A stretch of 64,000 bases of DNA. Source: an uncultured Muribaculaceae bacterium (GTDB taxonomy: Bacteria; Bacillota_I; Bacilli_A; RF39; UBA660). The stretch lies in NCBI GenBank assembly GCA_964630365.1, contig CAZVUP010000004.1:1970-65969 (forward strand). The letters are read 5' to 3'. The translations under genes were made by a program, and so were the position numbers. Below are positions 1,780 through 61,345 of the stretch, in pieces (within the stretch, counting starts at the first letter, position 1; each line of letters starts with the position of its first letter). The notes below the pieces were generated by a model. It had not been told where the DNA came from and ran no database searches. It saw only the letters and a program-made list of their open reading frames with translations.

Positions 1780-3297
1780 TTATCTAGTATAAGTTTCATA
1801 ATTCGAATAATTACCATCAGCACAGTAACTATTATCATCAATACAACGTAAATATGTACGAACAAGACTATTATACTTTTCTTTCTGTAATCCAGCTAAT
1901 ATAAAAGCATGTGGCTGATCACTAACATTCCAGTAAAAATTAAATTTAGTACCAATTTCTTTTGCTTTATTTCTTACTTGAACAGCATTACGATAATTAA
2001 TAATATCATCAGTCTTACTATGAATAATTAATACTTTATCACTAGGCCTAAAACCTCTTCCATTACCAAATACATTTTCATAAGTATCAAAATTAGAAGA
2101 ATTAATACCAAAAACTCTATTATCAATTATGTATTGTTTAATAACATCATCAGTAACTTGACTATTATTTAATTCATTACCTTCATTATAGTTTTTAGCA
2201 TCAACATTAATTCGCCTATTATTAATATAATTATTTATTAAATTTTCAAACTCCGTAGTCGAAATATTTCCATTAGCTAAATCACTTATCGTTTTTTGAT
2301 CAACACTAAGACCCAATTCGTTTATAACTGATGTAATATTTCTTTCGAAGTTACCAGTTTCTTCTTCAGTATTTTGAACAAATAGATCTAAATCCATAGT
2401 ATCTCCAGCGTTTATTAGGCCCTTAATCAACTCAGTAAGTGAAACATAACCAGAGTCTTCAACTAACCCTTTAAAGTGATATTTATTTCTCAAATCAGCT
2501 GTAAAATTAGGATTAGTAACCAACTGCATACCAGTATTAGCTCCAAGAGAAACACCATGAACAACTAAAGTATCAACATTATAGTTATTATTAAGCCATT
2601 TAATCCAGTCAAAAGCATCTAAGCTTTCTAAATAACCCCACGAATTAACACCACCACTTTTACCATGACCTCTTAAATCTGGTGCTAAAATATTATATCC
2701 ACGAGTTACATAAGGGGCACCAACTTGATTATAGATTGCTTTTCCTCCTCCAGCATTACCATGCAATAACAAAACCCATTTATTACTACTTGCAGATGAA
2801 ATATAAACGTACCCATTTAATTTATCATCACCCAAACAATATTCACTACTTGAGCCATACGTTGAACAAACAGTATCTGTTCCAATTGTAACCTTTTTTG
2901 CCTGAATACTATTAGGATTAATTAAATTATCATAATCAGCAGATACTTTACCAAGTTCTTCATCAAGTACTTTCTTTAAATCTTCGGTAGATTTAATATT
3001 TTTATCACGCATTAAGTTTTTTATATCTTCTGAAGTATAACCAACAAGTTCTCCTTCAGAATAATACTTAGATAAATCAAGCATCTGACTAGCAATACTA
3101 TTTTTAGCATCATTTAAATCCATATTATTATCTAAGTTTGCAATAAAATCATCTAATTCAGTAATAAAATCATCAGTACTTTCATCAATTGTACTACTTT
3201 TTGTTGAAACGTCATTAATATTTGCTAAATACCAAACTAAAAAAAACAAGCCACAAATAACAAATATTAAAAATATATCTTTAATTCTCTCTTTCAA
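1780..3297 (-). CDS. Membrane-anchored, probably extracytoplasmic alpha/beta-fold serine hydrolase
   Basis: An N-terminal TM helix (IFLIFVICGLFFLVWYLANI) is followed by LLLHGNAGGG, the nucleophile elbow HGVSLGA, then HSKTDD and PHAF, which are candidates for a Ser-Asp-His triad. The start is TTG, 5 nt after AGGGGTGA, which directly follows the stop of the upstream kinase-like gene. Confidence 0.7.
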   Translation of the reverse strand: MKERIKDIFLIFVICGLFFLVWYLANINDVSTKSSTIDESTDDFITELDDFIANLDNNMDLNDAKNSIASQMLDLSKYYSEGELVGYTSEDIKNLMRDKNIKSTEDLKKVLDEELGKVSADYDNLINPNSIQAKKVTIGTDTVCSTYGSSSEYCLGDDKLNGYVYISSASSNKWVLLLHGNAGGGKAIYNQVGAPYVTRGYNILAPDLRGHGKSGGVNSWGYLESLDAFDWIKWLNNNYNVDTLVVHGVSLGANTGMQLVTNPNFTADLRNKYHFKGLVEDSGYVSLTELIKGLINAGDTMDLDLFVQNTEEETGNFERNITSVINELGLSVDQKTISDLANGNISTTEFENLINNYINNRRINVDAKNYNEGNELNNSQVTDDVIKQYIIDNRVFGINSSNFDTYENVFGNGRGFRPSDKVLIIHSKTDDIINYRNAVQVRNKAKEIGTKFNFYWNVSDQPHAFILAGLQKEKYNSLVRTYLRCIDDNSYCADGNYSNYETYTR

Positions 3298-3308
3298 CTA
3301 CATCACCC

Positions 3309-5243
3309 CTAATCATATATAGGTTTAGCATTAATTATCTTATATTTAACGCATACATCATTTTTTAATTTATAGACTCTTGAACAAGTATACTTTACTT
3401 CTGGCTCCTTAAAATCATCTTTAAGACATGTTACACCACTTAAAATATAACCATCAGGACAGGTATATAGTTCTAAAGCATCAGTAGTAACCTTACCATG
3501 ACACACACCATCTTTTAATTCCATTTCATCAGTACAAACATACTTCGCATTAGCATCAATAGTTGCCGAATTTGTACATTTATCACCTACTTTTGTATAT
3601 CCATCAGGACAAGTATAATTAGCAGTAGCAGGTACTGATACATTAATATCCTTAACACAATGACCTTGTCCATCAGAAGTTCCAACTAAACAGCTATATG
3701 TTGGTGTCGGTTGATAATAAAGACCACATTTTCCATCAGCATCACTATAACGATAGCCGTTAGGACAAATAGGATTATCATAATGATCATAACTTGGATT
3801 CTGTGTTAAATAACAACCACTATTAGTATAAGAACCGCCTCTAGAACATCCATATGTAGTAACTGCATTAGTAATAGATTGATTTGTTTTTGTACAAACA
3901 GTACCAGACTTCGTATATGAACTATCAGGGCAAGTATAAGACTTAGACGCATCAAAACTATTAATCGTAACACATATTGTTCCCGCAAGAACATAATTAT
4001 CAGGGCAAGTATAAACAACTGGCGCCTCCGCACTAATTTCTTGAATACACTTTTTGCCATCTAATTTAAAGTCATCAGCACACACATATGTTTTTTTAGG
4101 TTTTTTTGACTTTTTATAAACACATAAATCATTAGAGTATATATAATCATCTGGACAATAGAAATTCTCGGTAGCTGCAACTTCCTTCACTATCTTCTGA
4201 CACTTACTGCCATTAAGATCATATCCATCAGGGCACTCATAATGTCCATCAACACAAATACCATATTTATTAATTTTTCCATCTGAACATTTATATTTCA
4301 TCCGCCATAAGAATAATATACAACCAACTAAAACAATTACAAAAACAATCCAAGATAGTATTTTAAAGATATCTTTAAAAGAATATTTTTTACGTATACT
4401 AACAAGGTTATCATATAATTTGCTATTAGCAACAAGACTATCAAAATCTAAAGTATCACTAGATTTTTTTACTTTTCCTTTACTATCAACAATAGGCTGT
4501 TCTTCAATTATATTAATGCTATTTAATGCATCATACATCTTACCAACATCACTATATTGTTCACTAGAATCAATATCTAAAGCTAACATAATAATATTCA
4601 TTAAATCAGCGGATATATTCTCTAGATATGGTACTTTTTGACCAGTTTTTAACATTTCTAAAACTTCATCAGAACTCTTTAAATCAAAAGGAAGCTTACC
4701 AGCTAATAACTGATATAATAAAATACCAACTAGTGAAATATCAGTTTTAGTACTAAATGAATTATTAATACTAGCTAAAGCATCTATTCCACCAAGTTTA
4801 TAAGTAGTACCATCAACATAAATATTATCAACATTTATATTATTATGAATAATATCATTAACATGAAAAGCTGCTAAAGCTAATAAAATATTTTTTCCAA
4901 TTTCAATAATATTTTTTTCTGTATAATGATTACCAGTAAAACTTACTCCAAGGCTTTCTAAATATTCGAATATAATATAGAGTTTTCCCTCTTCAGAATC
5001 ATCAAAAACATCATAATATTTAATTATATATGGATTATTTTGAATTTTGCTAATAGCCTCTACTTCCCGAAATAGTGCGTCACGAACTTCAACATCAGAT
5101 ACACTATAATAATTTATAATTTTTAAATAAGCAGGTATTTTCCCAGTAGAAGTCAAATAATCAATTTTATACAACTCACCATAAGCTATATCTTTAATCT
5201 TCTCAATTATTGAGTATTTATTAATAATATCATTCTTCATCAT
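3309..5243 (-). CDS. Bitopic Ser/Thr-kinase-like protein (predicted pseudokinase) with a Cys-hairpin repeat ectodomain
   Basis: The N-terminal ~240 aa look like a Hanks-type kinase (AYLKII lysine, REVEAISK, DISLVGILLYQLLAGKLPF). The catalytic loop reads HNNINVDN instead of HRDxKxxN, and the DFG position reads GGID. One TM helix (ILSWIVFVIVLVGCILFLW) precedes a 330-aa Cys-rich repeat region. Confidence 0.7.
   Translation of the reverse strand: MMKNDIINKYSIIEKIKDIAYGELYKIDYLTSTGKIPAYLKIINYYSVSDVEVRDALFREVEAISKIQNNPYIIKYYDVFDDSEEGKLYIIFEYLESLGVSFTGNHYTEKNIIEIGKNILLALAAFHVNDIIHNNINVDNIYVDGTTYKLGGIDALASINNSFSTKTDISLVGILLYQLLAGKLPFDLKSSDEVLEMLKTGQKVPYLENISADLMNIIMLALDIDSSEQYSDVGKMYDALNSINIIEEQPIVDSKGKVKKSSDTLDFDSLVANSKLYDNLVSIRKKYSFKDIFKILSWIVFVIVLVGCILFLWRMKYKCSDGKINKYGICVDGHYECPDGYDLNGSKCQKIVKEVAATENFYCPDDYIYSNDLCVYKKSKKPKKTYVCADDFKLDGKKCIQEISAEAPVVYTCPDNYVLAGTICVTINSFDASKSYTCPDSSYTKSGTVCTKTNQSITNAVTTYGCSRGGSYTNSGCYLTQNPSYDHYDNPICPNGYRYSDADGKCGLYYQPTPTYSCLVGTSDGQGHCVKDINVSVPATANYTCPDGYTKVGDKCTNSATIDANAKYVCTDEMELKDGVCHGKVTTDALELYTCPDGYILSGVTCLKDDFKEPEVKYTCSRVYKLKNDVCVKYKIINAKPIYD
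3312..4304 (-). repeat. Coding repeat: 13 copies of a C-x10-12-C hairpin motif, consensus Y-(T/S)-C-P-D-G-Y-x-L-x-G-x-x-C, period ~25 aa
   Basis: Repeats were counted directly in the translation, for example CPDGYDLNGSKC, CPDDYIYSNDLC, CPDNYVLAGTIC, CPDGYTKVGDKC and CPDGYILSGVTC. All 26 Cys residues fall into 13 evenly spaced pairs. Confidence 0.85.
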
Positions 5244-7597
5244 CGTTTCGCCTCAAGTTTCTTTCTTAAAATGAAATAACAAATCAGTATAAGAGCCAAA
5301 GACATTAAACCAATTATTATTGCACTATTATAAAAATGGCTAGCCGTATACTCAAACATTGGATCATATTGACGAATATAACCAGGCACAACCTCCTGAA
5401 TCTTATCAATCAAGCCATTAAAATCATTAGTTGTCCCAAACATTTCTAATGACCATCGACATAATATAAAGGTTGAAATTTTTAAAACAGCACCTTTAAG
5501 TTCAAACAAAAGTCCACAAAACAATGACTGTGGAACTAAAAGCAAAGGCACATATGTCATAGCCATACTTTCATCTCTAGCAAAAGAAGAAACAACTAAA
5601 CCAATAGCTGATGAACCAAATATAGTAAGTGCCATAGTCGCCATCATTTCAATATTCCAATAATAAACAACACCATCACTAGGAGTATCAATAAATAATC
5701 CAAAAACATAAACAAACAATACAGCTTGAATTATAGAAAGAAAAGCAAACACTGTAATTTTAGAAAAAACATAAGAACTAAGCCGTAAATTAGCCATGTG
5801 CTCTTTCTTCAAAATAACTCTTTCCTTACATATTTCTTGAATAGAATTACCAAGACCTAAATATAAACCCGCCAAAGCAATACAAAACATAATTTCTTTA
5901 GTTCTTTCATATATTTCAAAAACTTTATCCGTTAAAATTAAGGACATCATAAAAACAATTATTGGAGATTGAATCAAAAGCAATAATAGTTGCGTTCTAT
6001 TATTAAGAATAGTCTTAATATAACGCTTAGTCAAAGTAAAATATTGACTAATAGCTGATGTATTAGTAATCTCTTTTTGTTTAACTTTTATCAAATGTTC
6101 ACTGTCTTCTAAAGAAGCAACATCTGGTAATATTTGTTCATCTAAATATTTTTGATGCCACTTATCAGGATCATCACCAATTAACAAATAAATATCTATT
6201 AAATCTTTAGTACCAAAGAAAGCATTTGCTTGGTTAGGAAAACCATCATAGCAAATTTTACCACCATCACCAAAGAAAACAACCCTATCACACAAATACA
6301 AATTAAGGGTATTGTGCGTAACTAAAATAACAGTTCTCCCACTATCAGCCATTTTTCGTAATGTAAGCATCATTCTTCTCTCATTTTCAGGATCCAAACC
6401 ACTTGTTGGTTCATCTAAGAAAAACAACCTAGGGTCCGCCAACAATTCAACAGCAATACCTGCTCTTTTTCTTTGTCCTCCAGACAAATTTCTAATAAGT
6501 ACATCTTCTTTACCAACCAAATCAACAATATCAAGAACCTCTTTTATTCTTCTTTCTTTTTCAACAGAAGTAGATTTAAGTGGCATTCTTAAATCAGCAG
6601 AATACTTAAGCATATCAATTAAAGTTAAATTAGTAAAAACAATATCATCCTGGGGAACATAACCTATGTTGTTTTTCAATTGTTCGTAGTTTTTAAACAA
6701 ATCACTTCCATTAATTAGAACTTGTCCTTTAGTAGGCTTATTAAGACCACACATCGAAAGCATTAATGTTGTCTTACCAACACCACTAGCTCCAACAAAA
6801 GCAACAAATTTACCAGGAGAAATAGTCATATTAATATCCTCAGAAATATTAACTTTTCGCCCTTTTATCCTAACTGTATTATAAATACCACGTACATCAA
6901 CACGAACACCCTTTTCAGCAAACTGATAAATTACTTCATCGCGCGAATATATAAGTTTAAGATCTTCAATTTGAATAACATCATTATCATCTAATACAAT
7001 ATTATCTTCAACTAATTTACTATTTACATATACATCTCTACCCATTGAAAATAATATATATCTATCTTTATCTTTTCTAATCTCAATATAATCTTCTACA
7101 TCACTTTTATAAAGCAACATAATATTACAACCACTGCAGTTACCAATTTTCGTAACTGTTCGATGTAAGCGATAATGATTCCACCTATGAATATTATTTC
7201 CAATCTTTACCATAAATAAGATACCATGTTTACTATGATCACTTATATTATCAATACGAATATAATCATTATCATTCAAAGTATACTCACTTATCTTCTG
7301 ATCATTAACAATAAGGCCATTTTTACTATCATTATCATATACTTTTAAAACATTATCCTTTATTACAAAAAAACCATGGAATTTTGAAACAAACAAAGAA
7401 GGAATTACAATGTCATTGGTTTTATCACGACCAAATGTAATTCTTTCTTTATGAAAATCAGATAAGACTATATTAGAAATTTCTCCATTAGCAACAATAG
7501 ATATATTAAAAACAGTATCTAAATAGTCTTTATTAGTAGAAATTTCATAATTATTATTATCATTTGAATTTTGAACATCTAATTTTTCTATATCCAT
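5240..7597 (-). CDS. FHA-domain-containing ABC transporter (fused ATPase and ABC-2/ABCG-type permease)
   Basis: FHA1 reads ITFGRDKTNDIVIPSLFVSKFHG...DSKNGLIVN, and a second degenerate FHA-like segment spans aa ~145-217. ABC motifs are Walker A GASGVGKTT, signature LSGGQRKR and Walker B LFFLDEPTSGLD, followed by a C-terminal multi-TM domain. The gene overlaps the downstream kinase-like gene by 4 nt. Confidence 0.85.
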   Translation of the reverse strand: MDIEKLDVQNSNDNNNYEISTNKDYLDTVFNISIVANGEISNIVLSDFHKERITFGRDKTNDIVIPSLFVSKFHGFFVIKDNVLKVYDNDSKNGLIVNDQKISEYTLNDNDYIRIDNISDHSKHGILFMVKIGNNIHRWNHYRLHRTVTKIGNCSGCNIMLLYKSDVEDYIEIRKDKDRYILFSMGRDVYVNSKLVEDNIVLDDNDVIQIEDLKLIYSRDEVIYQFAEKGVRVDVRGIYNTVRIKGRKVNISEDINMTISPGKFVAFVGASGVGKTTLMLSMCGLNKPTKGQVLINGSDLFKNYEQLKNNIGYVPQDDIVFTNLTLIDMLKYSADLRMPLKSTSVEKERRIKEVLDIVDLVGKEDVLIRNLSGGQRKRAGIAVELLADPRLFFLDEPTSGLDPENERRMMLTLRKMADSGRTVILVTHNTLNLYLCDRVVFFGDGGKICYDGFPNQANAFFGTKDLIDIYLLIGDDPDKWHQKYLDEQILPDVASLEDSEHLIKVKQKEITNTSAISQYFTLTKRYIKTILNNRTQLLLLLIQSPIIVFMMSLILTDKVFEIYERTKEIMFCIALAGLYLGLGNSIQEICKERVILKKEHMANLRLSSYVFSKITVFAFLSIIQAVLFVYVFGLFIDTPSDGVVYYWNIEMMATMALTIFGSSAIGLVVSSFARDESMAMTYVPLLLVPQSLFCGLLFELKGAVLKISTFILCRWSLEMFGTTNDFNGLIDKIQEVVPGYIRQYDPMFEYTASHFYNSAIIIGLMSLALILICYFILRKKLEAKR

Positions 7598-24749: not shown

Positions 24750-26039
24750 ATGAAAGAAAAATTTATTAAATCTACTATAATTCTCTTAATTGGCGGATTT
24801 CTAACAAAAATTCTCGGAATGCTTATAAAAATTATCATGGCCCGAATTATCGGTACCAAAACATTAGGAACTTATATGTTAATTCTACCAACATTTTCTC
24901 TTTTAATCAGCCTTAGTCAATTTGGTCTTCCAATAGCCCTTTCTAAACTAATTTCAGAAGAAACAAGAAACAATAAAAATCTTTTCTTTACTCTCTTACC
25001 ACTCTTAGTAGCAATTAATATCTTACTATCTATCTTAATAGTAATAACGGCCCCAATAATTAGTACAAGACTATTACACAATGATAATACCTATCTAGCA
25101 ATTTTAGCCATGTCCCTAGTTATACCTTTCACATCAACATCGAGTATCTGTAGAAGCTATTTTTTTGGCAAATCAAGAATGTTCCCCCATGTTCTATCAA
25201 ACATCATTGAAGACATAACTAGACTTTTATTATTAATTACAACTCTACCAAAAATTATTCTTTATGGAACAAAATACGCTGTAGCTTATCTAGTCTTAAT
25301 AAACATAATTAGTGAAATAGCATCAACAATAGTTTTAATCTTCTTTCTACCAAAAAATATAAAAATAACTAAAAAAGACTTTATACCAAATAAAAACTAT
25401 CTAAAAGATAGCCTAAAAATAAGTATTCCTAATACCAGTACTAGACTAATAGGAAGTATTGGTTATTTTCTAGAACCAATTATAATATCAACCATTCTCT
25501 TAAAAGTGGGTTATACAACTAACTATATAACTACTGAATATGGTATCATTTCTGGTTATGTAATACCCTTAATATTATTACCATCATTCTTTACACTAGC
25601 CATATCTCAAGCACTACTTCCCATAATATCAAAAGAATATACTAAAGGAAATAAAATATATGTAAAAAGAAAAATAATTCAAGCTATTGTCTTATCTTTA
25701 CTTATAGGTATCCCCGTAACTATTATTTTAGTCTTAAAACCAGCCTATTTTCTAAATTTAATCTACCATACAAACGAAGGTACAACATACATAAAAATAC
25801 TTGCTCCAATATGTATATTTCAGTATATTCAAGCACCGCTTGCAAGTTCTTTAGATGCTATGGCTAAAAGTAAAGATGCCTTTCTAGCAACCCTCTATGG
25901 CACAATAATTAGAACAACTACACTCTATCTAACATCATATTTAAAAATAGGATTCTATTCACTAATCATCGCCACTAGCCTAAATATATTAGTAGTAACA
26001 TTCTATGAAATAAAAAAAGTAAGAAAATATCTTACTTAG
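24750..26039 (+). CDS. MOP-superfamily polysaccharide/lipid-II flippase (SpoVB/MurJ-like)
   Basis: The 429-aa polytopic protein has the N-terminus FIKSTIILLIGGFLTKILGMLIKIIMARIIGTKTLGTY, typical of the SpoVB/MurJ family. Confidence 0.75.
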   Translation: MKEKFIKSTIILLIGGFLTKILGMLIKIIMARIIGTKTLGTYMLILPTFSLLISLSQFGLPIALSKLISEETRNNKNLFFTLLPLLVAINILLSILIVITAPIISTRLLHNDNTYLAILAMSLVIPFTSTSSICRSYFFGKSRMFPHVLSNIIEDITRLLLLITTLPKIILYGTKYAVAYLVLINIISEIASTIVLIFFLPKNIKITKKDFIPNKNYLKDSLKISIPNTSTRLIGSIGYFLEPIIISTILLKVGYTTNYITTEYGIISGYVIPLILLPSFFTLAISQALLPIISKEYTKGNKIYVKRKIIQAIVLSLLIGIPVTIILVLKPAYFLNLIYHTNEGTTYIKILAPICIFQYIQAPLASSLDAMAKSKDAFLATLYGTIIRTTTLYLTSYLKIGFYSLIIATSLNILVVTFYEIKKVRKYLT

Positions 26040-26961
26040 TTTTAACTATTTCTTTGTCATCTTCCATACCTCTATAATATTCTAATCTTTGTAACTCCAT
26101 ATAATAAGCATCAACTAAATCTTTTAATGTAGGAGTTATATGATATGTTTGTCCTCCTGGTAATCTTGTTATAGAAATATGAGTAAAATCCACTAAGAAC
26201 CTACTTATCAAAGAACAAGCATCAGAATAAAGCTGATCATCAACAAATATAGTTCTAAAAGGAGTTGAACCTTCAGTTTTTTCAAAAAAACCTTTAATTT
26301 TAGAATGTAAAATAATATTAATATGTTCATTAAGAAGTAAATCTTCATCATAATTTCCTGGATCTATTTTTGAAATATTATCTTCTATTATTGTAGGAAT
26401 AAATGATTTAATAAATTGATCATAATAGAAATCACCATATAATTTATCAGAATATATTTGATCTATATGCTGTAATGTTTTTTCAAAATCCGTATCACTT
26501 TGATCTCCATAGCCACATCTTCTATAATCAAACATATAATAAAGATCTAATATTTTTTTTAAAGTTGTATTTATAGTCACTTCATAAATTCTAGAATTTT
26601 CATCTTTAGACCAACAAGAAACTTTCAAATGATCTCGAAGAATATAAATAAGTATATCAAAAGCTATATCAAAATAGTTTTCTTGAATATAAAATGTATT
26701 TTCACCAGAGATAAAAAGGCCAGGTCCATGATAAGGTTGTATTTTTATCTTTTCATCAATAATTGTTTTGTCTTTAACATCATAAGGACTCCAATGTTTA
26801 CTATCTATAGAAAAGGTATCAAAATGATCATCTAAAGACACATTTATAAATATTGGTAAAAACTCTCTCATAAATCCCATTATAATATCTGTTATAGCGT
26901 CACTTTCTACATCTTGAGAATAACTTTTCATATCTTCTATTTTTTCATAAAAATTAGCCAT
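26032..26961 (-). CDS. Paralog 4 of a tandem four-gene family (two-module cytoplasmic protein, unknown function)
   Basis: The protein starts MANFYEK, follows an AAGGAG RBS, and ends YYMELQRLEYYRGMEDDK. The N- and C-halves align with each other. Confidence 0.75.
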   Translation of the reverse strand: MANFYEKIEDMKSYSQDVESDAITDIIMGFMREFLPIFINVSLDDHFDTFSIDSKHWSPYDVKDKTIIDEKIKIQPYHGPGLFISGENTFYIQENYFDIAFDILIYILRDHLKVSCWSKDENSRIYEVTINTTLKKILDLYYMFDYRRCGYGDQSDTDFEKTLQHIDQIYSDKLYGDFYYDQFIKSFIPTIIEDNISKIDPGNYDEDLLLNEHINIILHSKIKGFFEKTEGSTPFRTIFVDDQLYSDACSLISRFLVDFTHISITRLPGGQTYHITPTLKDLVDAYYMELQRLEYYRGMEDDKEIVKTK

Positions 26962-26975
26962 ATAAATTCTCCTTA

Positions 26976-27908
26976 TTACTTTTTAACCGCAACTTTTTCT
27001 TTGTCATCTTCCAAAGCCCGATAATGTTCTAATCTTTGTAATTCCATAAAATATGTTTTAATCATCTCACGTAAATATTCTTTATATTTAAAACTTACTC
27101 CGTAAGACCGACCACCATTAAAACAACATTCTGGAGATAAATAATCTTTAATAAGATTTATAAATTCAGAATAAAATTGATCATCAACAAAAATACTTTT
27201 TTCCCAACAAATTACACTATCATCTTCCATAACATCAGGAAGTTTTGAATTTTTAAAAACAGAAACTACCCCAGAATTAATTATATCTCTCTCATAATTA
27301 CTAGGGGTAATTTGAGAAATTCCTTGATTAATAACAAGCGGCATAATTTTACCAATGAACTCATCATAGAATAAATCACCATATAACTTTTCAGAATAAA
27401 TTTGTTCCAAATATTTAAGCTTTTTCTCAAAGTCAGTATAAACATTTATATCAGCTTCACCATATCTTCTAGGATCATATGAATAATACAGCCTTAAAAG
27501 ATTATTTAAACTTGTACTAAAAGTAATAATAATGTCATTATCACTATTTCTATTCCATTCATATGAATAGTCCAACTCAGAACGAATAATATTTCTTAGT
27601 TTATCAGCAAAAAATTCTAAATAATCTTCTCTAACAATAAAATCTTTATTATCAAACATAACTAAGCTAGAATCATACACCGCTTGAAAAGGGCGGATAG
27701 TTATTGTCCTCTTTTCTTCTAATTCTCTTATTGATTCTGGCTTTAAATCAGCGCTTAAACTATTTATATTATCTAATGATTCATTAATCCAATATGGTAA
27801 AACCAAATGCATAAATTCTAATATCATATCAGCAATAATATCGCTTTCTACATCTATAGAATAATTTTTAACATCATTTACTTTTTCATAAAAATTAGCA
27901 ATCTCCAT
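26976..27908 (-). CDS. Paralog 3 of the tandem family
   Basis: The protein starts MEIANFYEK and ends YFMELQRLEHYRALEDDK. It shares YSYDPRRYG and IYSEKLYGDLFYDEFI with its neighbours. Confidence 0.75.
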   Translation of the reverse strand: MEIANFYEKVNDVKNYSIDVESDIIADMILEFMHLVLPYWINESLDNINSLSADLKPESIRELEEKRTITIRPFQAVYDSSLVMFDNKDFIVREDYLEFFADKLRNIIRSELDYSYEWNRNSDNDIIITFSTSLNNLLRLYYSYDPRRYGEADINVYTDFEKKLKYLEQIYSEKLYGDLFYDEFIGKIMPLVINQGISQITPSNYERDIINSGVVSVFKNSKLPDVMEDDSVICWEKSIFVDDQFYSEFINLIKDYLSPECCFNGGRSYGVSFKYKEYLREMIKTYFMELQRLEHYRALEDDKEKVAVKK

Positions 27909-27921
27909 AGTAATACCTCTC

Positions 27922-28845
27922 TTATTTCTTTACCTTTTCTTTTGCTTTATCGTCTTCTATACCTCTATAATATTCTAATCTTCGTAATTCCATATAATAT
28001 TCTTTTACTAAATCATCCAGAGTAATATTAAATCTAAAAACATATCCTTTTAATGCTGCAGAATATCCAACAACATCCCCCCATAAATCATCCTCAAAAC
28101 GTTTTTTAAGCATAGTAATAAACTCATCATAAACAGCATCATCAACTACAAAATAAAATATATCTTTTTCTTGCTTTTTTATTAATTCAGATGAATCATA
28201 TACCGATTTTTCTACTACAACAAATTTTTCAGAGACAATATGTGTATGCATATAATTATGAGGTTGAATTCTTGATATATTACTTTCTATAATACTAGGT
28301 AATAATTTACCAATAAACTTATCATAATATGTATCACCATACAATTTATCATCATAAATATTACCTAACCAATTTAATTTTTCTTCAAAATCTCTTGGAG
28401 CAACATCTTCTCCTCCATATCTTCTAGGATCATATAAGTAATATAAATTCGTAATCTTACTTAAAGATGTTCCCATTTTAATTACACTCTCATTTTTATA
28501 TTTATGAATATCACAATTCATAACAATACCATTAAGAGATTCTATAATATTTAAAAAAGTTTTATAGTAAGCTTCATTTACAAAAATACTTGTCCCAATA
28601 ACTTCCGCCGCTTTTTTATCAGAAGATGAAATTACTCTAATAGTTTCAACAAACGTATCATCTGCAATATCATCAAAAGATAACTTAGAACTTTTAGCTT
28701 TTATTTTATCTATTTGCTTATTAATAACATTTCCTAAAAGTTCTTGCATAAACATCATTAAAATATCAGTTACTACATCAGCTTCTATATCTCGAGATAA
28801 ATCTTTTGCTTCTTCTATTTTTCTAAAAAAGTTTTTCTTTTCCAT
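27922..28845 (-). CDS. Paralog 2 of the tandem family
   Basis: The start is set at MEKKNFFRK (the ATG after AGGTGG, which overlaps the paralog-1 stop). The protein ends YYMELRRLEYYRGIEDDK. Confidence 0.75.
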   Translation of the reverse strand: MEKKNFFRKIEEAKDLSRDIEADVVTDILMMFMQELLGNVINKQIDKIKAKSSKLSFDDIADDTFVETIRVISSSDKKAAEVIGTSIFVNEAYYKTFLNIIESLNGIVMNCDIHKYKNESVIKMGTSLSKITNLYYLYDPRRYGGEDVAPRDFEEKLNWLGNIYDDKLYGDTYYDKFIGKLLPSIIESNISRIQPHNYMHTHIVSEKFVVVEKSVYDSSELIKKQEKDIFYFVVDDAVYDEFITMLKKRFEDDLWGDVVGYSAALKGYVFRFNITLDDLVKEYYMELRRLEYYRGIEDDKAKEKVKK

Positions 28846-28857
28846 AAAATACACCAC

Positions 28858-29745
28858 CTATTTCTTAACCTTTTCTTTAGGCTGATCATTTCTCATACCT
28901 TGATAGTATTCAAGTCTTTGTAATTCCATATAATATGCATTGACTAAATCCATAAAAGAACAATCAAATGCAATTTTTGATCCATCTTTAGAAAAAGAAT
29001 TACCAAGATCATAATCTTCCATAAATTGCATTATTTTTTCTCTGACCTTATCAACATATAAAGGATTAACTACAATACTATAAGGATCATCTAAAACTTC
29101 CAAAGCCACACCATAACCGCCAATGATATTACAATCAAAATTAAATTCTGGAACTTCAGAAAGATTAGCTAAATCAGTATTTTCAATTGCCTCATCAATA
29201 GTACCATAAACATATCCTGAAAGAAATTCTTGATAATAAAAATCTGTTGCCAAATCTTCACAATAAGCATTTATTTTACGTAGATTTGGTTCAAATTCTT
29301 TATCAACTATTTCTCCATCTCCCCAACGTCTTTCATCATTATGATAAAACACTTCTAATAGTCTCCATAAAGGAGCAAAAATATGGATAGAGTCTTCCTG
29401 AACTACAAATCCTAATTCATCATCAAAATAATTGGCAAGATAATCCCTAAGAGCATTATAAATCTCTGTACTAGGTATAAAAAGTTTTCCACTATTAGGA
29501 TCTATTTTTCTAAAAACAACTTTTTTCTGGCCTAAATAAAATTCAGTATTTTCGAGTTTTAATACATATTTTGTTTTTGCACCAAAAGAATACATTTTAA
29601 AATCATTTGATATTATTACCGAATTAATAATAGCAGGTAAAACTTTTCCTACAAACACGCTATAAAAATTTCCTACTACTTCTTCACTATATATATCTCC
29701 AAGCCACTCCTTAGTATTCTTATTTTTTTCATAAAAATTTTTCAT
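28858..29745 (-). CDS. Paralog 1 of the tandem family (most divergent)
   Basis: The protein starts MKNFYEK after a GGAGG RBS, ends YYMELQRLEYYQGMRNDQ, and contains FYHNDERRWG in place of YYxYDPRRYG. Confidence 0.75.
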   Translation of the reverse strand: MKNFYEKNKNTKEWLGDIYSEEVVGNFYSVFVGKVLPAIINSVIISNDFKMYSFGAKTKYVLKLENTEFYLGQKKVVFRKIDPNSGKLFIPSTEIYNALRDYLANYFDDELGFVVQEDSIHIFAPLWRLLEVFYHNDERRWGDGEIVDKEFEPNLRKINAYCEDLATDFYYQEFLSGYVYGTIDEAIENTDLANLSEVPEFNFDCNIIGGYGVALEVLDDPYSIVVNPLYVDKVREKIMQFMEDYDLGNSFSKDGSKIAFDCSFMDLVNAYYMELQRLEYYQGMRNDQPKEKVKK

Positions 29746-57254: not shown

Positions 57255-58529
57255 CTATTCTTTAAAATCAAAGTAAAAATCTAAAATACGAACTTGGTCG
57301 CCTTCTTTAGCTCCCATTTCAATTAATTTATCATCAATTCCCATTTTTCTTAATTTCTTAGCAAATCTATAAACTGCCTCATCACTAGAGAATTTAGTCA
57401 TCTTAAATATTCTTTCAACTTCCTTACCACTAACAGCCCATAAACCTTCCTCTTCTTTAGTAATAGTAAATGGCTCTTCTTTTTTAAATTTATAAAGTAC
57501 ATGACTCTCAATCTGAGATTCATCATAAAGTGGATTAGATGGAATAGTATCTAAAATATCTGCTAATTTATCAACTACCGTATTTAGTCCCGTATTAGTA
57601 GCAGCACTAACTTCAAATATTTCTAAATCAACTTTTTTCTTAAATTCTTCTAAATTTTCTTTAGCACCAGGAAGATCCATTTTATTCGCAATAACAATCA
57701 TTGGTTTTTTAATAAGTTTCTCATTAAAAGCTTCTAGTTCTTTATTTATTAAAAGATAATCTTCATAAGGATTTCTTCCCTCACTACCGCTCATATCAAT
57801 AACATGAGCAATAACTCTCGTTCTTTCAATATGACGTAAGAATTTATCTCCTAATCCTTCACCATGACTAGCACCCTCAATTAAACCTGGTAAATCTGCC
57901 ATAACAAAACTTCTACCATCACTTGCTTTAACAACTCCTAAATTAGGATTTAATGTTGTAAAGTGATAAGCTGCTATTTTAGGACGAGATCTAGACACAC
58001 AAGAAATAATTGTACTTTTACCAACACTAGGAAGTCCAACAAGGCCAACATCCGCAAGCATTTTAACTTCTACTTTTAAATTTTTAACTTCTCCTTCTTC
58101 TCCTCTTTCCGAATAATCAGGAGCAGTATTTGTTTGCGTTTTAAAAGCTGTATTACCGCGACCACCACGACCACCTTTAGCAATAACTTCTTCTTGATCT
58201 TTATGAGATAAATCAGCTAAAACCAATCCTGTATCTAAATCCGTAACAACAGTACCAAGTGGTACTTTAACAACTAATGGACTAGCACCTTTTCCATGTT
58301 GATTCTTTCCACGTCCTGCTTCACCATTACTACCTTTAATAGTTTTTTGATAACGTAAATCAAGTAAAGTATGTAGTCCTTCATCAACCTTAAAAATAAT
58401 ATCAGCACCATGTCCTCCATTACCACCATAAGGTCCACCCATCTCTATATATTTTTCACGACGAAAAGCAGTACAACCATCGCCACCTTTACCAGCTTCT
58501 ACCTTAATTTCTACTTCATCTACAAACAT
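57255..58529 (-). CDS. obg: GTPase Obg
   Basis: The N-terminus is MFVDEVEIKVEAGKGGDGC, a glycine-rich Obg fold. GTPase motifs are GLPSVGKST, DLPGLIEGA and NKMD, and a C-terminal OCT domain is present. Confidence 0.95.
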   Translation of the reverse strand: MFVDEVEIKVEAGKGGDGCTAFRREKYIEMGGPYGGNGGHGADIIFKVDEGLHTLLDLRYQKTIKGSNGEAGRGKNQHGKGASPLVVKVPLGTVVTDLDTGLVLADLSHKDQEEVIAKGGRGGRGNTAFKTQTNTAPDYSERGEEGEVKNLKVEVKMLADVGLVGLPSVGKSTIISCVSRSRPKIAAYHFTTLNPNLGVVKASDGRSFVMADLPGLIEGASHGEGLGDKFLRHIERTRVIAHVIDMSGSEGRNPYEDYLLINKELEAFNEKLIKKPMIVIANKMDLPGAKENLEEFKKKVDLEIFEVSAATNTGLNTVVDKLADILDTIPSNPLYDESQIESHVLYKFKKEEPFTITKEEEGLWAVSGKEVERIFKMTKFSSDEAVYRFAKKLRKMGIDDKLIEMGAKEGDQVRILDFYFDFKE

Positions 58530-58569: not shown

Positions 58570-59757
58570 TTAATCTACACTTCTAAAATAACTATAAGCA
58601 TTATCTTCTAGTTTTTTAATTAACCTTTTACCTCTAAACACTTCACCAAAATTATAAAAATCTTCATCTTTCATAATCTTTTCTAATAATTCTTCCATAA
58701 AAAATTCTAACTGTAGTAAATCACTAACACCAAAAATATTTTCAAATAATTCGGTATTATTATATAAAGCTAAATAATTAAGTAAATCTCTATTCTCTTC
58801 AAAAAAATATAAAACATAATGAAATAAACCTTGATAAGAGTTTTTTAGTTTTGCTTCATCTTGTGCCCAAAGTACCATTCCTTGTAAACGTCTTAAATCA
58901 TTAACGGCATTTTCTTCCGTATGAACTTCATCAATAAGTCTATAAGGTCCACCATGCATCTGTTTCAAACCACAACCCTTATCTCCTGTTTCAATAGCAT
59001 GTCTTAGTTCATGAAAAAAGTTATGATCAATATCACCAATCTCTAATAAAGAAACTAATGGAAAATATAATATACTGCCAATATTATCATCAGTATTACT
59101 AAGGATTTGTGTCGTAGTAGCAAGATTAGGATATGTTGCTGATTTTAATATTGATAATATTTCAGAAGTAGGCAAAAGACCAAATTTTTCTCTAACCTTA
59201 GCAGTAATTCTCTTACCCCAAAGTGAGTTTTCTAAAATATATAAATCGCAATTCTTATTTAGCATTTCCATTGTACTATTTAATGCTTTTATAGTTTCAA
59301 TATTATATATTGGACTAATACCTAATCTCTTACAGGTTCTTCTGTATTCTGCATCAAATATTGTTTTGTCTTCCTCGCTAAGTGTCTCATCTAGTAAAAA
59401 TGAATAATCTAGTTCTAATAACTTTTTAGCTCCACGACGAACATTAAAAGTACTACTCAAGAGATTAATATATGGCTTTCTAAATTTTCGAATAGCCTTA
59501 CTTTCCAATCTTGAAAAGTTACAAGCTTCATCAGTCATTCTTTTAGCAAGTTTAGCATCACCCCTAGCATGTTCATAAAGCTTAACAACAGTCTCAACTG
59601 GATCAACGTCAAATAAATATAGTGTATTTCTAAGACGTTCTTCAATTATATCACGATGTTCTTCTCCATAATCTTCCATATAAATATCAAGTAAGTTACT
59701 TTGATATTCTAAAACTGCCTCTTCTGGATATAATACATTTTCATAATTAACTGCCAT
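58570..59757 (-). CDS. HExxH-motif protein, paralog B (putative cytoplasmic zinc metallopeptidase fold)
   Basis: Motifs include FFHELRHAIETGD, DEVHTEENA and WGKRIT. The start is set at MAVNYEN after AGGTGGTGA. Confidence 0.6.
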   Translation of the reverse strand: MAVNYENVLYPEEAVLEYQSNLLDIYMEDYGEEHRDIIEERLRNTLYLFDVDPVETVVKLYEHARGDAKLAKRMTDEACNFSRLESKAIRKFRKPYINLLSSTFNVRRGAKKLLELDYSFLLDETLSEEDKTIFDAEYRRTCKRLGISPIYNIETIKALNSTMEMLNKNCDLYILENSLWGKRITAKVREKFGLLPTSEILSILKSATYPNLATTTQILSNTDDNIGSILYFPLVSLLEIGDIDHNFFHELRHAIETGDKGCGLKQMHGGPYRLIDEVHTEENAVNDLRRLQGMVLWAQDEAKLKNSYQGLFHYVLYFFEENRDLLNYLALYNNTELFENIFGVSDLLQLEFFMEELLEKIMKDEDFYNFGEVFRGKRLIKKLEDNAYSYFRSVD

Positions 59758-59769
59758 ATATATCACCAC

Positions 59770-60969
59770 CTACTTCTTTTTTGAATTATCTCTTAGCTTT
59801 TTCACTAATACTCTACCTTCTTCTTTTATTTCACGAGAAAAAGCAATTTTATCTCTCCTTAAAGAAAATCCCCTTCTTAATAATTCTTCAAATTTCGCCA
59901 AATTATCTTTACCAAAATAAGATTCAAAAGAACTAATGGCATTATTAATCGCAAACCTATTTAAAACCTCACAATACTCATCAAAAAACTCTTCTAAATT
60001 TAATTCTGAATATAAATATTCATATTCATTTCTATATCTACTAGGTAAAGGTTCTTGAGACCATAAAACTTTTCCTTTAAGTGCCTCTAAATCGCGAAGA
60101 GCGTTTTTTTCAGTTCTAAGTTCATTAAACAAATCATAATGATTACCAATATTTGTACTAAGGCCTGTTGATAAATCACCAAGCTCAACAACATGTCGTA
60201 ACTCATGAAAAATTATATTATCAAGAGCTTGATATTTTAATCGTTCAATAACTGGTAAATATACAAAACTATATCTAGCTCCTCCAGATGAAACTAGTCT
60301 CCCCGTAGCACCTGAAGAATCAAGACTTAATATATTAATAATATTATCAACACTAATTTCACTATACCAATTAGAAAGCTTTCTAGTGATTCTCTTACCC
60401 CATTTAGTATTTTGTAAAAGATATCGTTTTTCATCTCTTTCAGCATTTCTTCTATTACTCTCTAAAATAGTAATATAAGCGCTATCAGTTAATGGTTTAA
60501 CACCTAAACTAACACATTGTTTTAGATAATCTTTCTGTCTTTTTAGTATTTTACTTTTCACATATCTTGGAACCTGTGCATTGTTTAACATACTAACATT
60601 TTTCGTACTAAAACTTGAATAGTCAAGCTTTTCAAGTTCAGACATGGGTACTTTCTTAGGTTTAAAAAAACTAATTAACATTGAATAATACCCTGAATAA
60701 ATATGTTTATGATTCTTCCTAGCTGCCTTAATATAATCAAAGTATTCCTCTTCGACATATTCAGGAATATCAAAACGTTTCAATTTAGCACAGAATTCAT
60801 ATGTACTAATAGGATCAGAATCAAACAAATACATAGTATCATAAATTCTATCAGCCATTTTAGTAATCTGTTCTATTCCATAATCATGTGAATACAAGCT
60901 AAAAAGATTTGGAATATAATCCAAAAAAGCTTCATCAGGACGTAAAATTGCATCTAGCTTCACACTCAT
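59770..60969 (-). CDS. HExxH-motif protein, paralog A
   Basis: Motifs include IFHELRHVVELGD, NELRTEKNA and WGKRIT. The protein is 399 aa and follows a GGGGAG RBS. Confidence 0.6.
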   Translation of the reverse strand: MSVKLDAILRPDEAFLDYIPNLFSLYSHDYGIEQITKMADRIYDTMYLFDSDPISTYEFCAKLKRFDIPEYVEEEYFDYIKAARKNHKHIYSGYYSMLISFFKPKKVPMSELEKLDYSSFSTKNVSMLNNAQVPRYVKSKILKRQKDYLKQCVSLGVKPLTDSAYITILESNRRNAERDEKRYLLQNTKWGKRITRKLSNWYSEISVDNIINILSLDSSGATGRLVSSGGARYSFVYLPVIERLKYQALDNIIFHELRHVVELGDLSTGLSTNIGNHYDLFNELRTEKNALRDLEALKGKVLWSQEPLPSRYRNEYEYLYSELNLEEFFDEYCEVLNRFAINNAISSFESYFGKDNLAKFEELLRRGFSLRRDKIAFSREIKEEGRVLVKKLRDNSKKK

Positions 60970-61054: not shown

Positions 61055-61345
61055 CTATTTACCTTCTGGGTAAACTGAAGCTCTTTTCTTATCTCTTCCT
61101 AAACGTTCAAATTTAACGATTCCGTCAACTGTAGTATAAATAGAATCATCATTACCACGACGAGTATTTACACCTGGGAAAACTTTAGTTCCTCTTTGAC
61201 GATATATAATAGAACCAGCTGTTACAAATTCACCATCAGCTGCTTTAGCTCCAAGTCTACGTCCTGCTGAATCACGACCATTAGATGTTGATCCTTGACC
61301 TTTATGGTGTGCAAATAATTGAATATCTAATTTCAAAAATTTCAT
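61055..61345 (-). CDS. rpmA: 50S ribosomal protein L27 (with a cleavable N-terminal extension)
   Basis: The protein reads [26 protein letters not shown]... The [11 protein letters not shown] junction matches the Prp cleavage context of Bacillota L27. Confidence 0.95.

Follow-up and report, generated by a model that had tools for sequence, protein, structure and literature searches.

To our knowledge, few ectodomains of bacterial receptor kinases have been described beyond those of the PASTA, PQQ/beta-propeller and TPR types. In the PASTA kinases (PknB, PrkC and Stk1), an N-terminal Hanks fold is followed by one transmembrane (TM) helix and a C-terminal array of extracellular modules. The gene considered here lies at 3309..5243 of a 64-kb window (the whole stretch of DNA that was analysed, with a GC content of ~28%) from contig CAZVUP010000004.1 of an uncultured bacterium, and its 644-amino acid (aa) product has the same order of parts. 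In contrast to the PASTA kinases, however, this protein lacks PASTA repeats, carries 13 two-cysteine hairpin units in the extracellular position, and has lost its catalytic residues.

A second related system links a kinase to an exporter. In Mycobacterium tuberculosis, pknF and Rv1747 form a two-gene operon, and Rv1747, an FHA-FHA-ABC exporter, is positively regulated by PknF through threonine phosphorylation (PMC3138270, PMC3908365, PMC8339232). Similarly, the window contains a co-oriented kinase-type gene beside a gene for an FHA(-FHA)-ABC-2 exporter with a nucleotide-binding domain (NBD). The window pair thus belongs with the kinase-FHA-ABC operons of the PknF-Rv1747 type, except that the exporter of the window has no detectable second FHA domain. 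It also differs from PknF-Rv1747 in its phylum, in having the exporter gene first, and in its large Cys-rich ectodomain; moreover, the window copy is a pseudokinase and its exporter has one detectable FHA domain.

Our preferred reading, to which we give a probability of roughly 0.55, is that positions 3312-4298 encode the extracytoplasmic hairpin-repeat domain of a Hanks-type receptor that works together with the upstream FHA-ABC exporter. The parts of the gene are as follows.

3309..5243, minus strand: pseudokinase gene, a complete open reading frame (ORF) of 644 aa with its stop codon at 3309-3311 (ORF listing)
4509..5243, minus strand: Hanks-type kinase-like domain, cytoplasmic, aa 1-245 (Pfam, NCBIfam, Foldseek and a motif table over 15 members)
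4377..4508, minus strand: disordered juxtamembrane linker, aa 246-289 (predicted value of the local distance difference test, pLDDT, <50 for aa 247-289)
4299..4376, minus strand: single TM helix, aa ~290-315, hydrophobic core ILSWIVFVIVLVGCILFLW (model helix 290-315 and hydrophobic stretch)
3312..4298, minus strand: ectodomain, aa 316-644 (329 aa), with 13 two-Cys hairpin units (Cys map, unit alignment and model)
4254-4289, 4200-4235, 4122-4157, 4047-4082 and 3972-4007, minus strand: Cys-to-Cys cores, first five listed (checked by translation)
3894-3932, 3813-3848, 3726-3767 and 3657-3692, minus strand: Cys-to-Cys cores, next four (checked by translation)
3576-3611, 3501-3536, 3426-3461 and 3351-3386, minus strand: Cys-to-Cys cores, last four (checked by translation)

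The cysteine repeat and its likely pairing

The protein contains 27 Cys, of which C308 lies inside the TM helix and the other 26 all follow it. These 26 make up a row of 13 pairs, of which eleven have the spacing C-x10-C, one C-x11-C and one C-x12-C, and successive pairs are 11-15 residues apart, except for a gap of 6 residues between units 1 and 2. Each unit occupies ~25 aa and consists of the consensus Y-x-C-P-x-G-Y-x-L-x-G-x-x-C and a linker of ~13 residues. A Tyr or Phe stands two residues ahead of the first Cys in 12 of the 13 units; six units open with CPD and eight with CP[DN]. When the ectodomain was shuffled 100,000 times, gaps of 10-12 residues between Cys occurred 2.45 times on average and at most 10 times, compared with 14 times in the actual sequence. 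An initial annotation of 3312-4304 (aa 314-644 of the protein) had described 13 two-Cys units after a single TM helix, a C-x10-12-C spacing, and the common form Y-T-C-P-D-G-Y-x-L-x-G-x-x-C. The Cys map and unit alignment agree with this description in each respect, with every pair at x10, x11 or x12, and the shuffles place the pattern far beyond chance. Among the other ORFs of the window, none was Cys-rich or bore the pattern. Additionally, a DNA-level tandem repeat was looked for and none was found, and the hairpin units are therefore old and diverged.

If the region were disordered, the disulfides proposed in the initial annotation would not be expected. A full-length AlphaFold2 model, built with 14 orthologs, has a mean pLDDT of 77 and consists of a kinase fold, a disordered linker, a TM helix, and short beta-strands in the ectodomain, for which pLDDT values are 80-86 in this model and 80-89 over both AlphaFold2 models. 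When modelled alone, the ectodomain has a mean pLDDT of 83.9 and is all-beta, with short strands and hairpins, no helix, and no residue below 50. The hairpins are thus locally confident, whereas the overall shape is not, because the predicted template modelling score (pTM) of this model is only 0.33.

The orthologs are 14 search matches with the kinase-TM-repeat architecture (636-778 aa), which share 28-51% full-length identity with the window protein, itself the fifteenth member. The Cys spacing is well conserved among them: 24 of the 26 ectodomain Cys are invariant across the 15-member alignment, and all 26 are invariant in a subset of nine sequences. Ectodomain Cys number 26, 28 or 30 and are thus even in 15 of 15 members, for which the chance under random parity is ~3 in 100,000, and which fits paired disulfides. 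The extra Cys of some orthologs come as short-spaced pairs (for instance, YYCNGTASLTSNNKC in P0007), and one loop of P0020 is reduced to C-x4-C with both Cys retained. Relative to P0004, the closest relative, the window protein is best conserved in its ectodomain (59% identity; the kinase domain reaches 46%). A single-protein scan of GTDB representative genomes gave no true relative of the window protein.

From the even counts, the invariance, and the gain of Cys as short-spaced pairs, we infer that the Cys form disulfides, most likely within units. Each unit would then most likely be closed by its own disulfide, in the manner of the C5-C6 loop of EGF, a pair that is disulfide-bonded in established EGF structures. 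An ectodomain with 7.9% Cys is unusual for a low-GC Firmicute, as the initial annotation had remarked, because Firmicutes generally exclude Cys from exported proteins (PMC2823432). Since Firmicutes avoid exported Cys and many are without dedicated oxidases (PMC2823432), the Cys might instead form an inter-unit ladder (the second Cys of unit i with the first Cys of unit i+1), remain reduced if the habitat is anoxic, or bind metal. The lack of an oxidoreductase candidate in the window is in keeping with such states, and the pairing itself is read from the sequence. Nevertheless, we regard them as distinctly improbable. A ladder leaves the first and last Cys without a partner, unbonded thiols poorly explain why, in 15 proteins, the 26-30 Cys are nearly all invariant and always even in number, and C-x10-C is not a usual spacing for metal binding. 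The gain of units as short-spaced pairs and the shortened P0020 loop that keeps both Cys also point to bonding within units, as does the alignment of the hairpin unit with the disulfide-bonded C5-C6 part of the cEGF model.

The repeat family and its carriers

Searches of curated libraries and solved structures with the window ectodomain gave little. Nothing in Pfam was significant (the best matches, with E-values of 0.0077 for PBCV1_P7 and 0.72 for cEGF, are both far below cut-offs), NCBIfam had no match at E<=10, and a PDB sequence search returned nothing significant. A profile of nine orthologs matched only Sushi/CCP proteins in the PDB (E 0.013-0.28), with no significant stretch; these CCP matches run through the local motif Y-x-C-x-x-G-Y-x-L-x-G. 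Foldseek comparison of the ectodomain model with the PDB, one of the checks proposed for the repeat region, returned nothing better than E 0.18. These top hits were elongated beta proteins (lysenin, aerolysin) with TM-scores of ~0.1, and were rejected as meaningless.

The repeat is nonetheless widespread. A word-indexed homolog search gave only 3 proteins, and an exhaustive HMMER search with the ectodomain was needed to reveal 484 cluster representatives (50% identity) at E<=1e-3, of which 156 reach E<=1e-10 and 27 reach E<=1e-30. Relatives in other architectures have phmmer E-values of 1e-30 to 1e-60. A hidden Markov model (HMM) of the unit, which recovers only units with both Cys, identified complete two-Cys units in 183 proteins, 1,558 in all, with the logo Y-[ST]-C-P-x-G-Y-T-L-x-G-x-x-C. 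Therefore, the statement in the initial annotation that the repeat cannot be assigned to any family stands insofar as no curated family reaches threshold, but the repeat is not an orphan. DUF5874 (PF19202) was considered as a family and was not used, as it scores 25.9 bits against a cut-off of 27.1 in one relative and matches 1 of 89 members.

The curated models nearest to the unit, and the only ones that touch it, are cEGF, for the C-terminal C5-C6 hairpin of EGF-like domains, and the Sushi core, with which the window unit has the local motif C-P-x-G-[YF]-x-L-x-G-x-x-C in common. If the repeats were true EGF/cEGF or Sushi domains gained from eukaryotes, then their novelty would be lost. In partial agreement with such an origin, 29 of 89 family members match cEGF and 17 match Sushi at a whole-protein E<=0.01, one relative (P0035) reaches a cEGF score of 54.7 bits where the cut-off is 26.6, and CCP proteins head the PDB profile matches. 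These whole-protein values, however, sum many weak repeats; no single stretch passes in any relative, and the cEGF alignment is limited to model positions 5-20, which correspond to the last Cys pair of an EGF domain. The window ectodomain itself reaches only 10.2 bits for cEGF (PF12662; E 0.72, cut-off 26.6), and the window protein has no match to Sushi (PF00084). An EGF domain has six Cys in three disulfides per ~40 aa and a Sushi domain has four Cys and a Trp per ~60 aa, so that the hairpin unit, with only two Cys per 25 residues, is not a full copy of either. Together with PDB matches of E 0.013 or worse by profile and no better than 0.18 by Foldseek, and thus no likeness at the level of the fold, these differences make a eukaryotic origin highly improbable, and the repeat matches no well-characterised family at threshold even though cEGF and Sushi partly catch its relatives.

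The ectodomains of EGFR, the insulin receptor (furin-like) and TNFR are likewise chains of small disulfide-closed modules. The window ectodomain resembles these eukaryotic receptors by analogy only: sequence searches gave no support for a relationship, and neither did Foldseek, where the ligand-binding and cysteine-rich domains of EphA2 (LBD-CRD, 8trv) appeared only at E 1.5.

A motif search in related proteins had been suggested with the initial annotation, and the family recovered here includes TraN and other surface proteins. In P0010, P0019, P0025 and P0064, the repeats are followed on their C-terminal side by the TraN domain PF06986, and long TraN arrays have phmmer E-values down to 6e-53. 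Against plasmids, tblastn matched 25 records (Sphingobium, Sphingopyxis, Shewanella and others). One of these matches is inside an annotated traN of an F-type type IV secretion system (T4SS) operon, with traW, traU, trbC, traF and traH as neighbours; the TraN proteins of classical F and pKpQIL were not among the tblastn matches. TraN is a cell-cell adhesin of mating-pair stabilisation, and AlphaFold models of the classical pKpQIL, R100-1 and F proteins have an N-terminal domain that is rich in beta structure and whose Cys can all be assigned to intramolecular disulfides (PMC9246713). Long TraN and the window protein have the Y-x-C-P-x-G-Y-x-L-x-G-x-x-C unit in common, in long arrays. In contrast to TraN, which is an outer-membrane protein of Gram-negative bacteria, the window protein has a presumed monoderm host and no TraN C-terminal domain: PF06986 is absent, and the neighbouring genes are chromosomal (mutS, nusB, xseA) with no T4SS context.

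Other carriers include a SpvB/TcdB/RHS (Tc/RHS-type) toxin protein (P0024) and an RsgI-like anti-sigma factor with RsgI_M (P0003). Many carriers that look low-GC (Firmicute) have lipoprotein-type signal peptides or N-terminal membrane anchors, as in type-II membrane proteins, and the domains that co-occur with the repeats are Cadherin-like, Big_2, Flg_new and SH3_5. By its sequence distribution, the hairpin repeat is a large bacterial surface family without a model of its own in the libraries searched; it is not unique to the window protein but is common to long TraN and surface proteins, uncurated, and structurally unsolved. Rather than a sensor dedicated to this kinase family, the module seems to be a general extracytoplasmic building block that acts as a spacer or scaffold. 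Because the repeat is spread over TraN, toxin, lipoprotein and anti-sigma proteins, the unit is probably a stable spacer or a display or binding scaffold rather than an enzyme.

Among the carriers are giant proteins (P0009, P0037, P0048 and P0061; 2,000-4,088 aa) that consist largely of the hairpin units and have N-termini that resemble Gram-negative signal peptides. The largest, P0009, from a JGI contig of 138 kb, has 4,088 aa, 304 Cys and 52 HMM units; it was the only giant scanned with Pfam, and it had no match. The repeat had no tblastn match in a phage genome collection. In BFVD, Foldseek gave 7 matches below 1e-3, all with TM-scores of ~0.1 and mostly unnamed giant-virus or phage proteins; four of the entries (A0A6M6DDH0, A0A142BZK2, E5EQ87 and A0A8F8KL79) match the ectodomain locally at E 4e-12 to 5e-06, and the named matches include a Clandestinovirus 'hemagglutinin'. 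Judging from these models, the viral proteins may carry similar hairpin arrays.

The kinase domain and the FHA-ABC exporter

The N-terminus matches Pfam Pkinase (E 8.5e-17, best over aa 31-144), and Foldseek comparison of the full-length model returned kinases only, with Staphylococcus aureus PknB/Stk1 as the best matches (4eqm at E 6e-15, and 9ymt; TMt 0.77). The label "kinase-like" of the initial annotation is therefore correct for the fold, but it should read pseudokinase. In the 15-member alignment, the window protein has HNNINVDN in place of HxD[ILV]KPxN, GGI in place of DFG, and a deletion of the activation segment. The HRD-Asp, catalytic Lys, DFG-Asp and activation segment of active kinases are thus all missing, and on these grounds the window protein is a pseudokinase derived from an active receptor kinase. 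The closest relative, P0004, also has H-N-N-I-N-[VI]-D-N, and ~15-20 residues of the activation segment are gone from both proteins. In contrast, the other 13 of the 15 members keep H-x-D-[ILV]-K-P-x-N, G-D-F and a G-T-x-x-Y-x-x-P-E activation segment, and look active. These intact members are mostly non-RD kinases, with H-[SAGTKN]-D at the catalytic loop and HRD in only 2 of the 13. That PASTA domains are missing from their usual position, as the initial annotation implied, was also found: the ectodomain has no Pfam PASTA match even at E<=10, and the PASTA kinase model NF033483, with a cut-off of 450 bits, reaches 51.9, all of it from the kinase part.

The genes on either side of the pseudokinase gene are the following.

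5240..7597, minus strand: FHA-ABC exporter gene, 785 aa, upstream partner (Pfam FHA, ABC_tran and ABC2_membrane)
1780..3297, minus strand: membrane-anchored alpha/beta-hydrolase gene, 505 aa, downstream (Pfam Abhydrolase_1, Hydrolase_4 and Peptidase_S15)

The exporter, which is the best functional clue at this locus and was missed in the initial annotation, has the Pfam architecture FHA / degenerate FHA-2 / ABC ATPase / ABC-2 permease. The start of the pseudokinase gene overlaps the exporter stop by 4 nt (5240-5243). An exporter gene lies directly upstream of the kinase gene in the window, P0004, P0006, P0012 and P0031 loci, which otherwise differ in their neighbours, and the adjacency is seen in every ortholog contig long enough to show it. 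The best solved relative of the exporter FHA domain is that of Rv1747 (6cah, E 4.3e-07), and FHA-1 keeps the phosphothreonine-binding residues GR, SxxH and NG. Two FHA stretches are detected by Pfam in the exporters that accompany intact kinases (L006, L007 and L010) and one in those that accompany the two pseudokinases. This match between FHA number and kinase state fits functional coupling, but it amounts to one evolutionary event. The second FHA domain (6848..7597 of the window, minus strand; exporter aa ~140-230) is undetectable by Pfam in the window and in the P0004 locus.

Within the juxtamembrane linker, T264 (codon 4452-4454) is invariant in 15 of 15 members and is the only invariant linker residue, in the context T-[LFVI]-x-[FIV]. 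FHA domains can be specific for a hydrophobic residue at pT+3. T264 is therefore a plausible candidate for an FHA-docking phosphothreonine, as far as its conservation and context suggest. For the intact orthologs, we infer a coupling in which the state of the ectodomain, possibly with a ligand, would control kinase activity and phosphorylation of the juxtamembrane Thr that corresponds to T264. The phosphothreonine would then recruit the FHA domain of the exporter, and export would be tuned, as PknF does for Rv1747. The ectodomain would take part as 13 diverged hairpins of ~25 residues, each with its own disulfide, that together may form a stapled all-beta rod or ribbon outside the membrane. 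Because its catalytic residues are gone, the pseudokinase of the window lineage would have a non-catalytic role, either that of a scaffold or that of a substrate for a different kinase, and its ectodomain would remain under constraint.

Divergence of the cassette and competing explanations

In both the window and the P0004 contig, the hydrolase, pseudokinase and exporter genes (window 1780..7597) lie between mutS and nusB. In a relative with an 83%-identical MutS, mutS is directly followed by nusB and xseA, without these three genes (L012, 12553..12629). The block is therefore an accessory insertion or has been lost in that relative; its GC content is not distinctive. Between the window and the P0004 contig, the flanking proteins MutS (92% identity), XseA (92%), YitT (87%) and NusB (79%) are more similar than the products of the cassette, namely the FHA-ABC exporter (68%), the pseudokinase (50%) and the alpha/beta-hydrolase (39%).

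If the array were mainly a surface adhesin or recognition protein, evolving under diversifying selection and binding an external partner such as a phage, a polysaccharide, or the surface of a host or neighbour cell, then the dead kinase would serve only as a cytoplasmic anchor and the exporter would have no regulatory tie to it. The divergence described above would be in line with this, since the gene is 50% identical between genomes in which the flanks are 79-92% identical, as would the loss of catalytic residues. Additionally, hairpin repeats also build TraN, a cell-cell adhesin (PMC9246713), and the Tc/RHS-type toxin protein, and they co-occur with the Cadherin-like, Big_2, Flg_new and SH3_5 surface domains. 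Yet the exporter pairing is kept in every informative context, down to orthologs of 28-33% identity; 13 of the 15 members have the complete catalytic motif set, and the juxtamembrane Thr is invariant. Moreover, no part of the protein is better conserved than the ectodomain (59%, against 46% in the kinase domain), unlike what strong diversifying selection would produce. An adhesin role is thus unlikely, although it is the strongest of the competing explanations.

The same divergence could reflect decay, in which case the cassette would be a remnant with a dead kinase, a degenerate FHA-2 and a functionless ectodomain. The catalytic motifs, the activation segment and the detectable second FHA domain have indeed been lost, the cassette proteins are 39-68% identical where the flanks are 79-92% identical, and the cassette is absent in a relative. 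However, in two diverged genomes none of the three ORFs is broken and their translational coupling is kept, and between these genomes the ectodomain is 59% identical. The 26 ectodomain Cys, T264 and the binding residues of FHA-1 (GR, SxxH and NG) are all kept as well. There is very little room, therefore, for a decaying remnant.

Compared with these explanations, a receptor that works with the exporter is preferred, and several observations weigh against it. With regard to the ectodomain, the pTM of 0.33 leaves undecided whether it is a straight rod or folded back; the disulfides are predicted from sequence and models; and the exclusion of Cys from exported proteins is documented for Firmicutes (PMC2823432). 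A CxxC scan of the ORFs of the 64-kb window found no thioredoxin-like Dsb/Bdb candidate, although a stretch of this length is too short to decide the matter, and the source of oxidant would be in question if the habitat is anoxic. None of the results indicates a ligand of the ectodomain. With regard to signalling, the PknF-like mechanism is an extrapolation from orthologs because the window copy cannot phosphorylate, the association of FHA-2 loss with kinase loss comes from one lineage (the window and P0004), and the fast divergence of the cassette and its absence in a close relative could mean relaxed constraint rather than tuned signalling.

Kinases or pseudokinases that combine a hairpin ectodomain with an FHA-ABC partner do not appear to have been described. 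In a recent atlas of ~300,000 bacterial serine/threonine kinases (STKs), a term search found no mention of a Cys-rich or EGF-like ectodomain or of pairing with an ABC transporter. It is tentatively proposed, at somewhat less than even odds, that the hairpin is an undescribed and unsolved bacterial extracellular repeat that here forms the sensor rod of a new class of receptor kinases and pseudokinases tied to an FHA-gated ABC exporter in uncultured low-GC Bacilli. If this is true, then the locus is a Firmicute counterpart of PknF-Rv1747 with extracellular input, and extracellular disulfide formation is efficient in a group thought to avoid it. In this respect, 26 conserved exported Cys in a low-GC Firmicute point to a capacity for oxidative folding in uncultured Bacilli, against the reported pattern (PMC2823432). 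The repeat has hundreds of diverged members, no Pfam or NCBIfam match at threshold, and no PDB match for either the ectodomain or the profile of orthologs. With a model and a structure, many surface proteins could be annotated, among them long TraN in its repeat region. Similarly, the kinase/FHA-ABC pairing, with its natural pseudokinase variant, offers a comparative handle on the control of FHA-gated exporters such as Rv1747.

In the loci of P0004 and P0006, too, a hydrolase gene is a neighbour. The window hydrolase has, outside the hydrophobic stretch at its N-terminus, four Cys in two close pairs, both in the predicted outer part: VCSTYGSSSEYC (C-x10-C), and CIDDNSYC (C-x6-C) near the C-terminus. 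This arrangement suggests that the hydrolase may be a second disulfide-bearing exported protein of the cassette. Sporulation genes of the SpoIVB, SpoIIGA and sigma-E types are present in syntenic relatives.

Two further groups of paralogous genes were seen elsewhere in the window, both on the minus strand. Four tandem ORFs of 295-310 aa at 26032..29745 have similar N-termini (M..NFYEK...D.E.D). Two adjacent ORFs of 395 and 399 aa at 58570..60969 also have similar N-termini, and are flanked by ORFs with Obg-like (57255..58529) and L27-like (61055..61345) N-termini.

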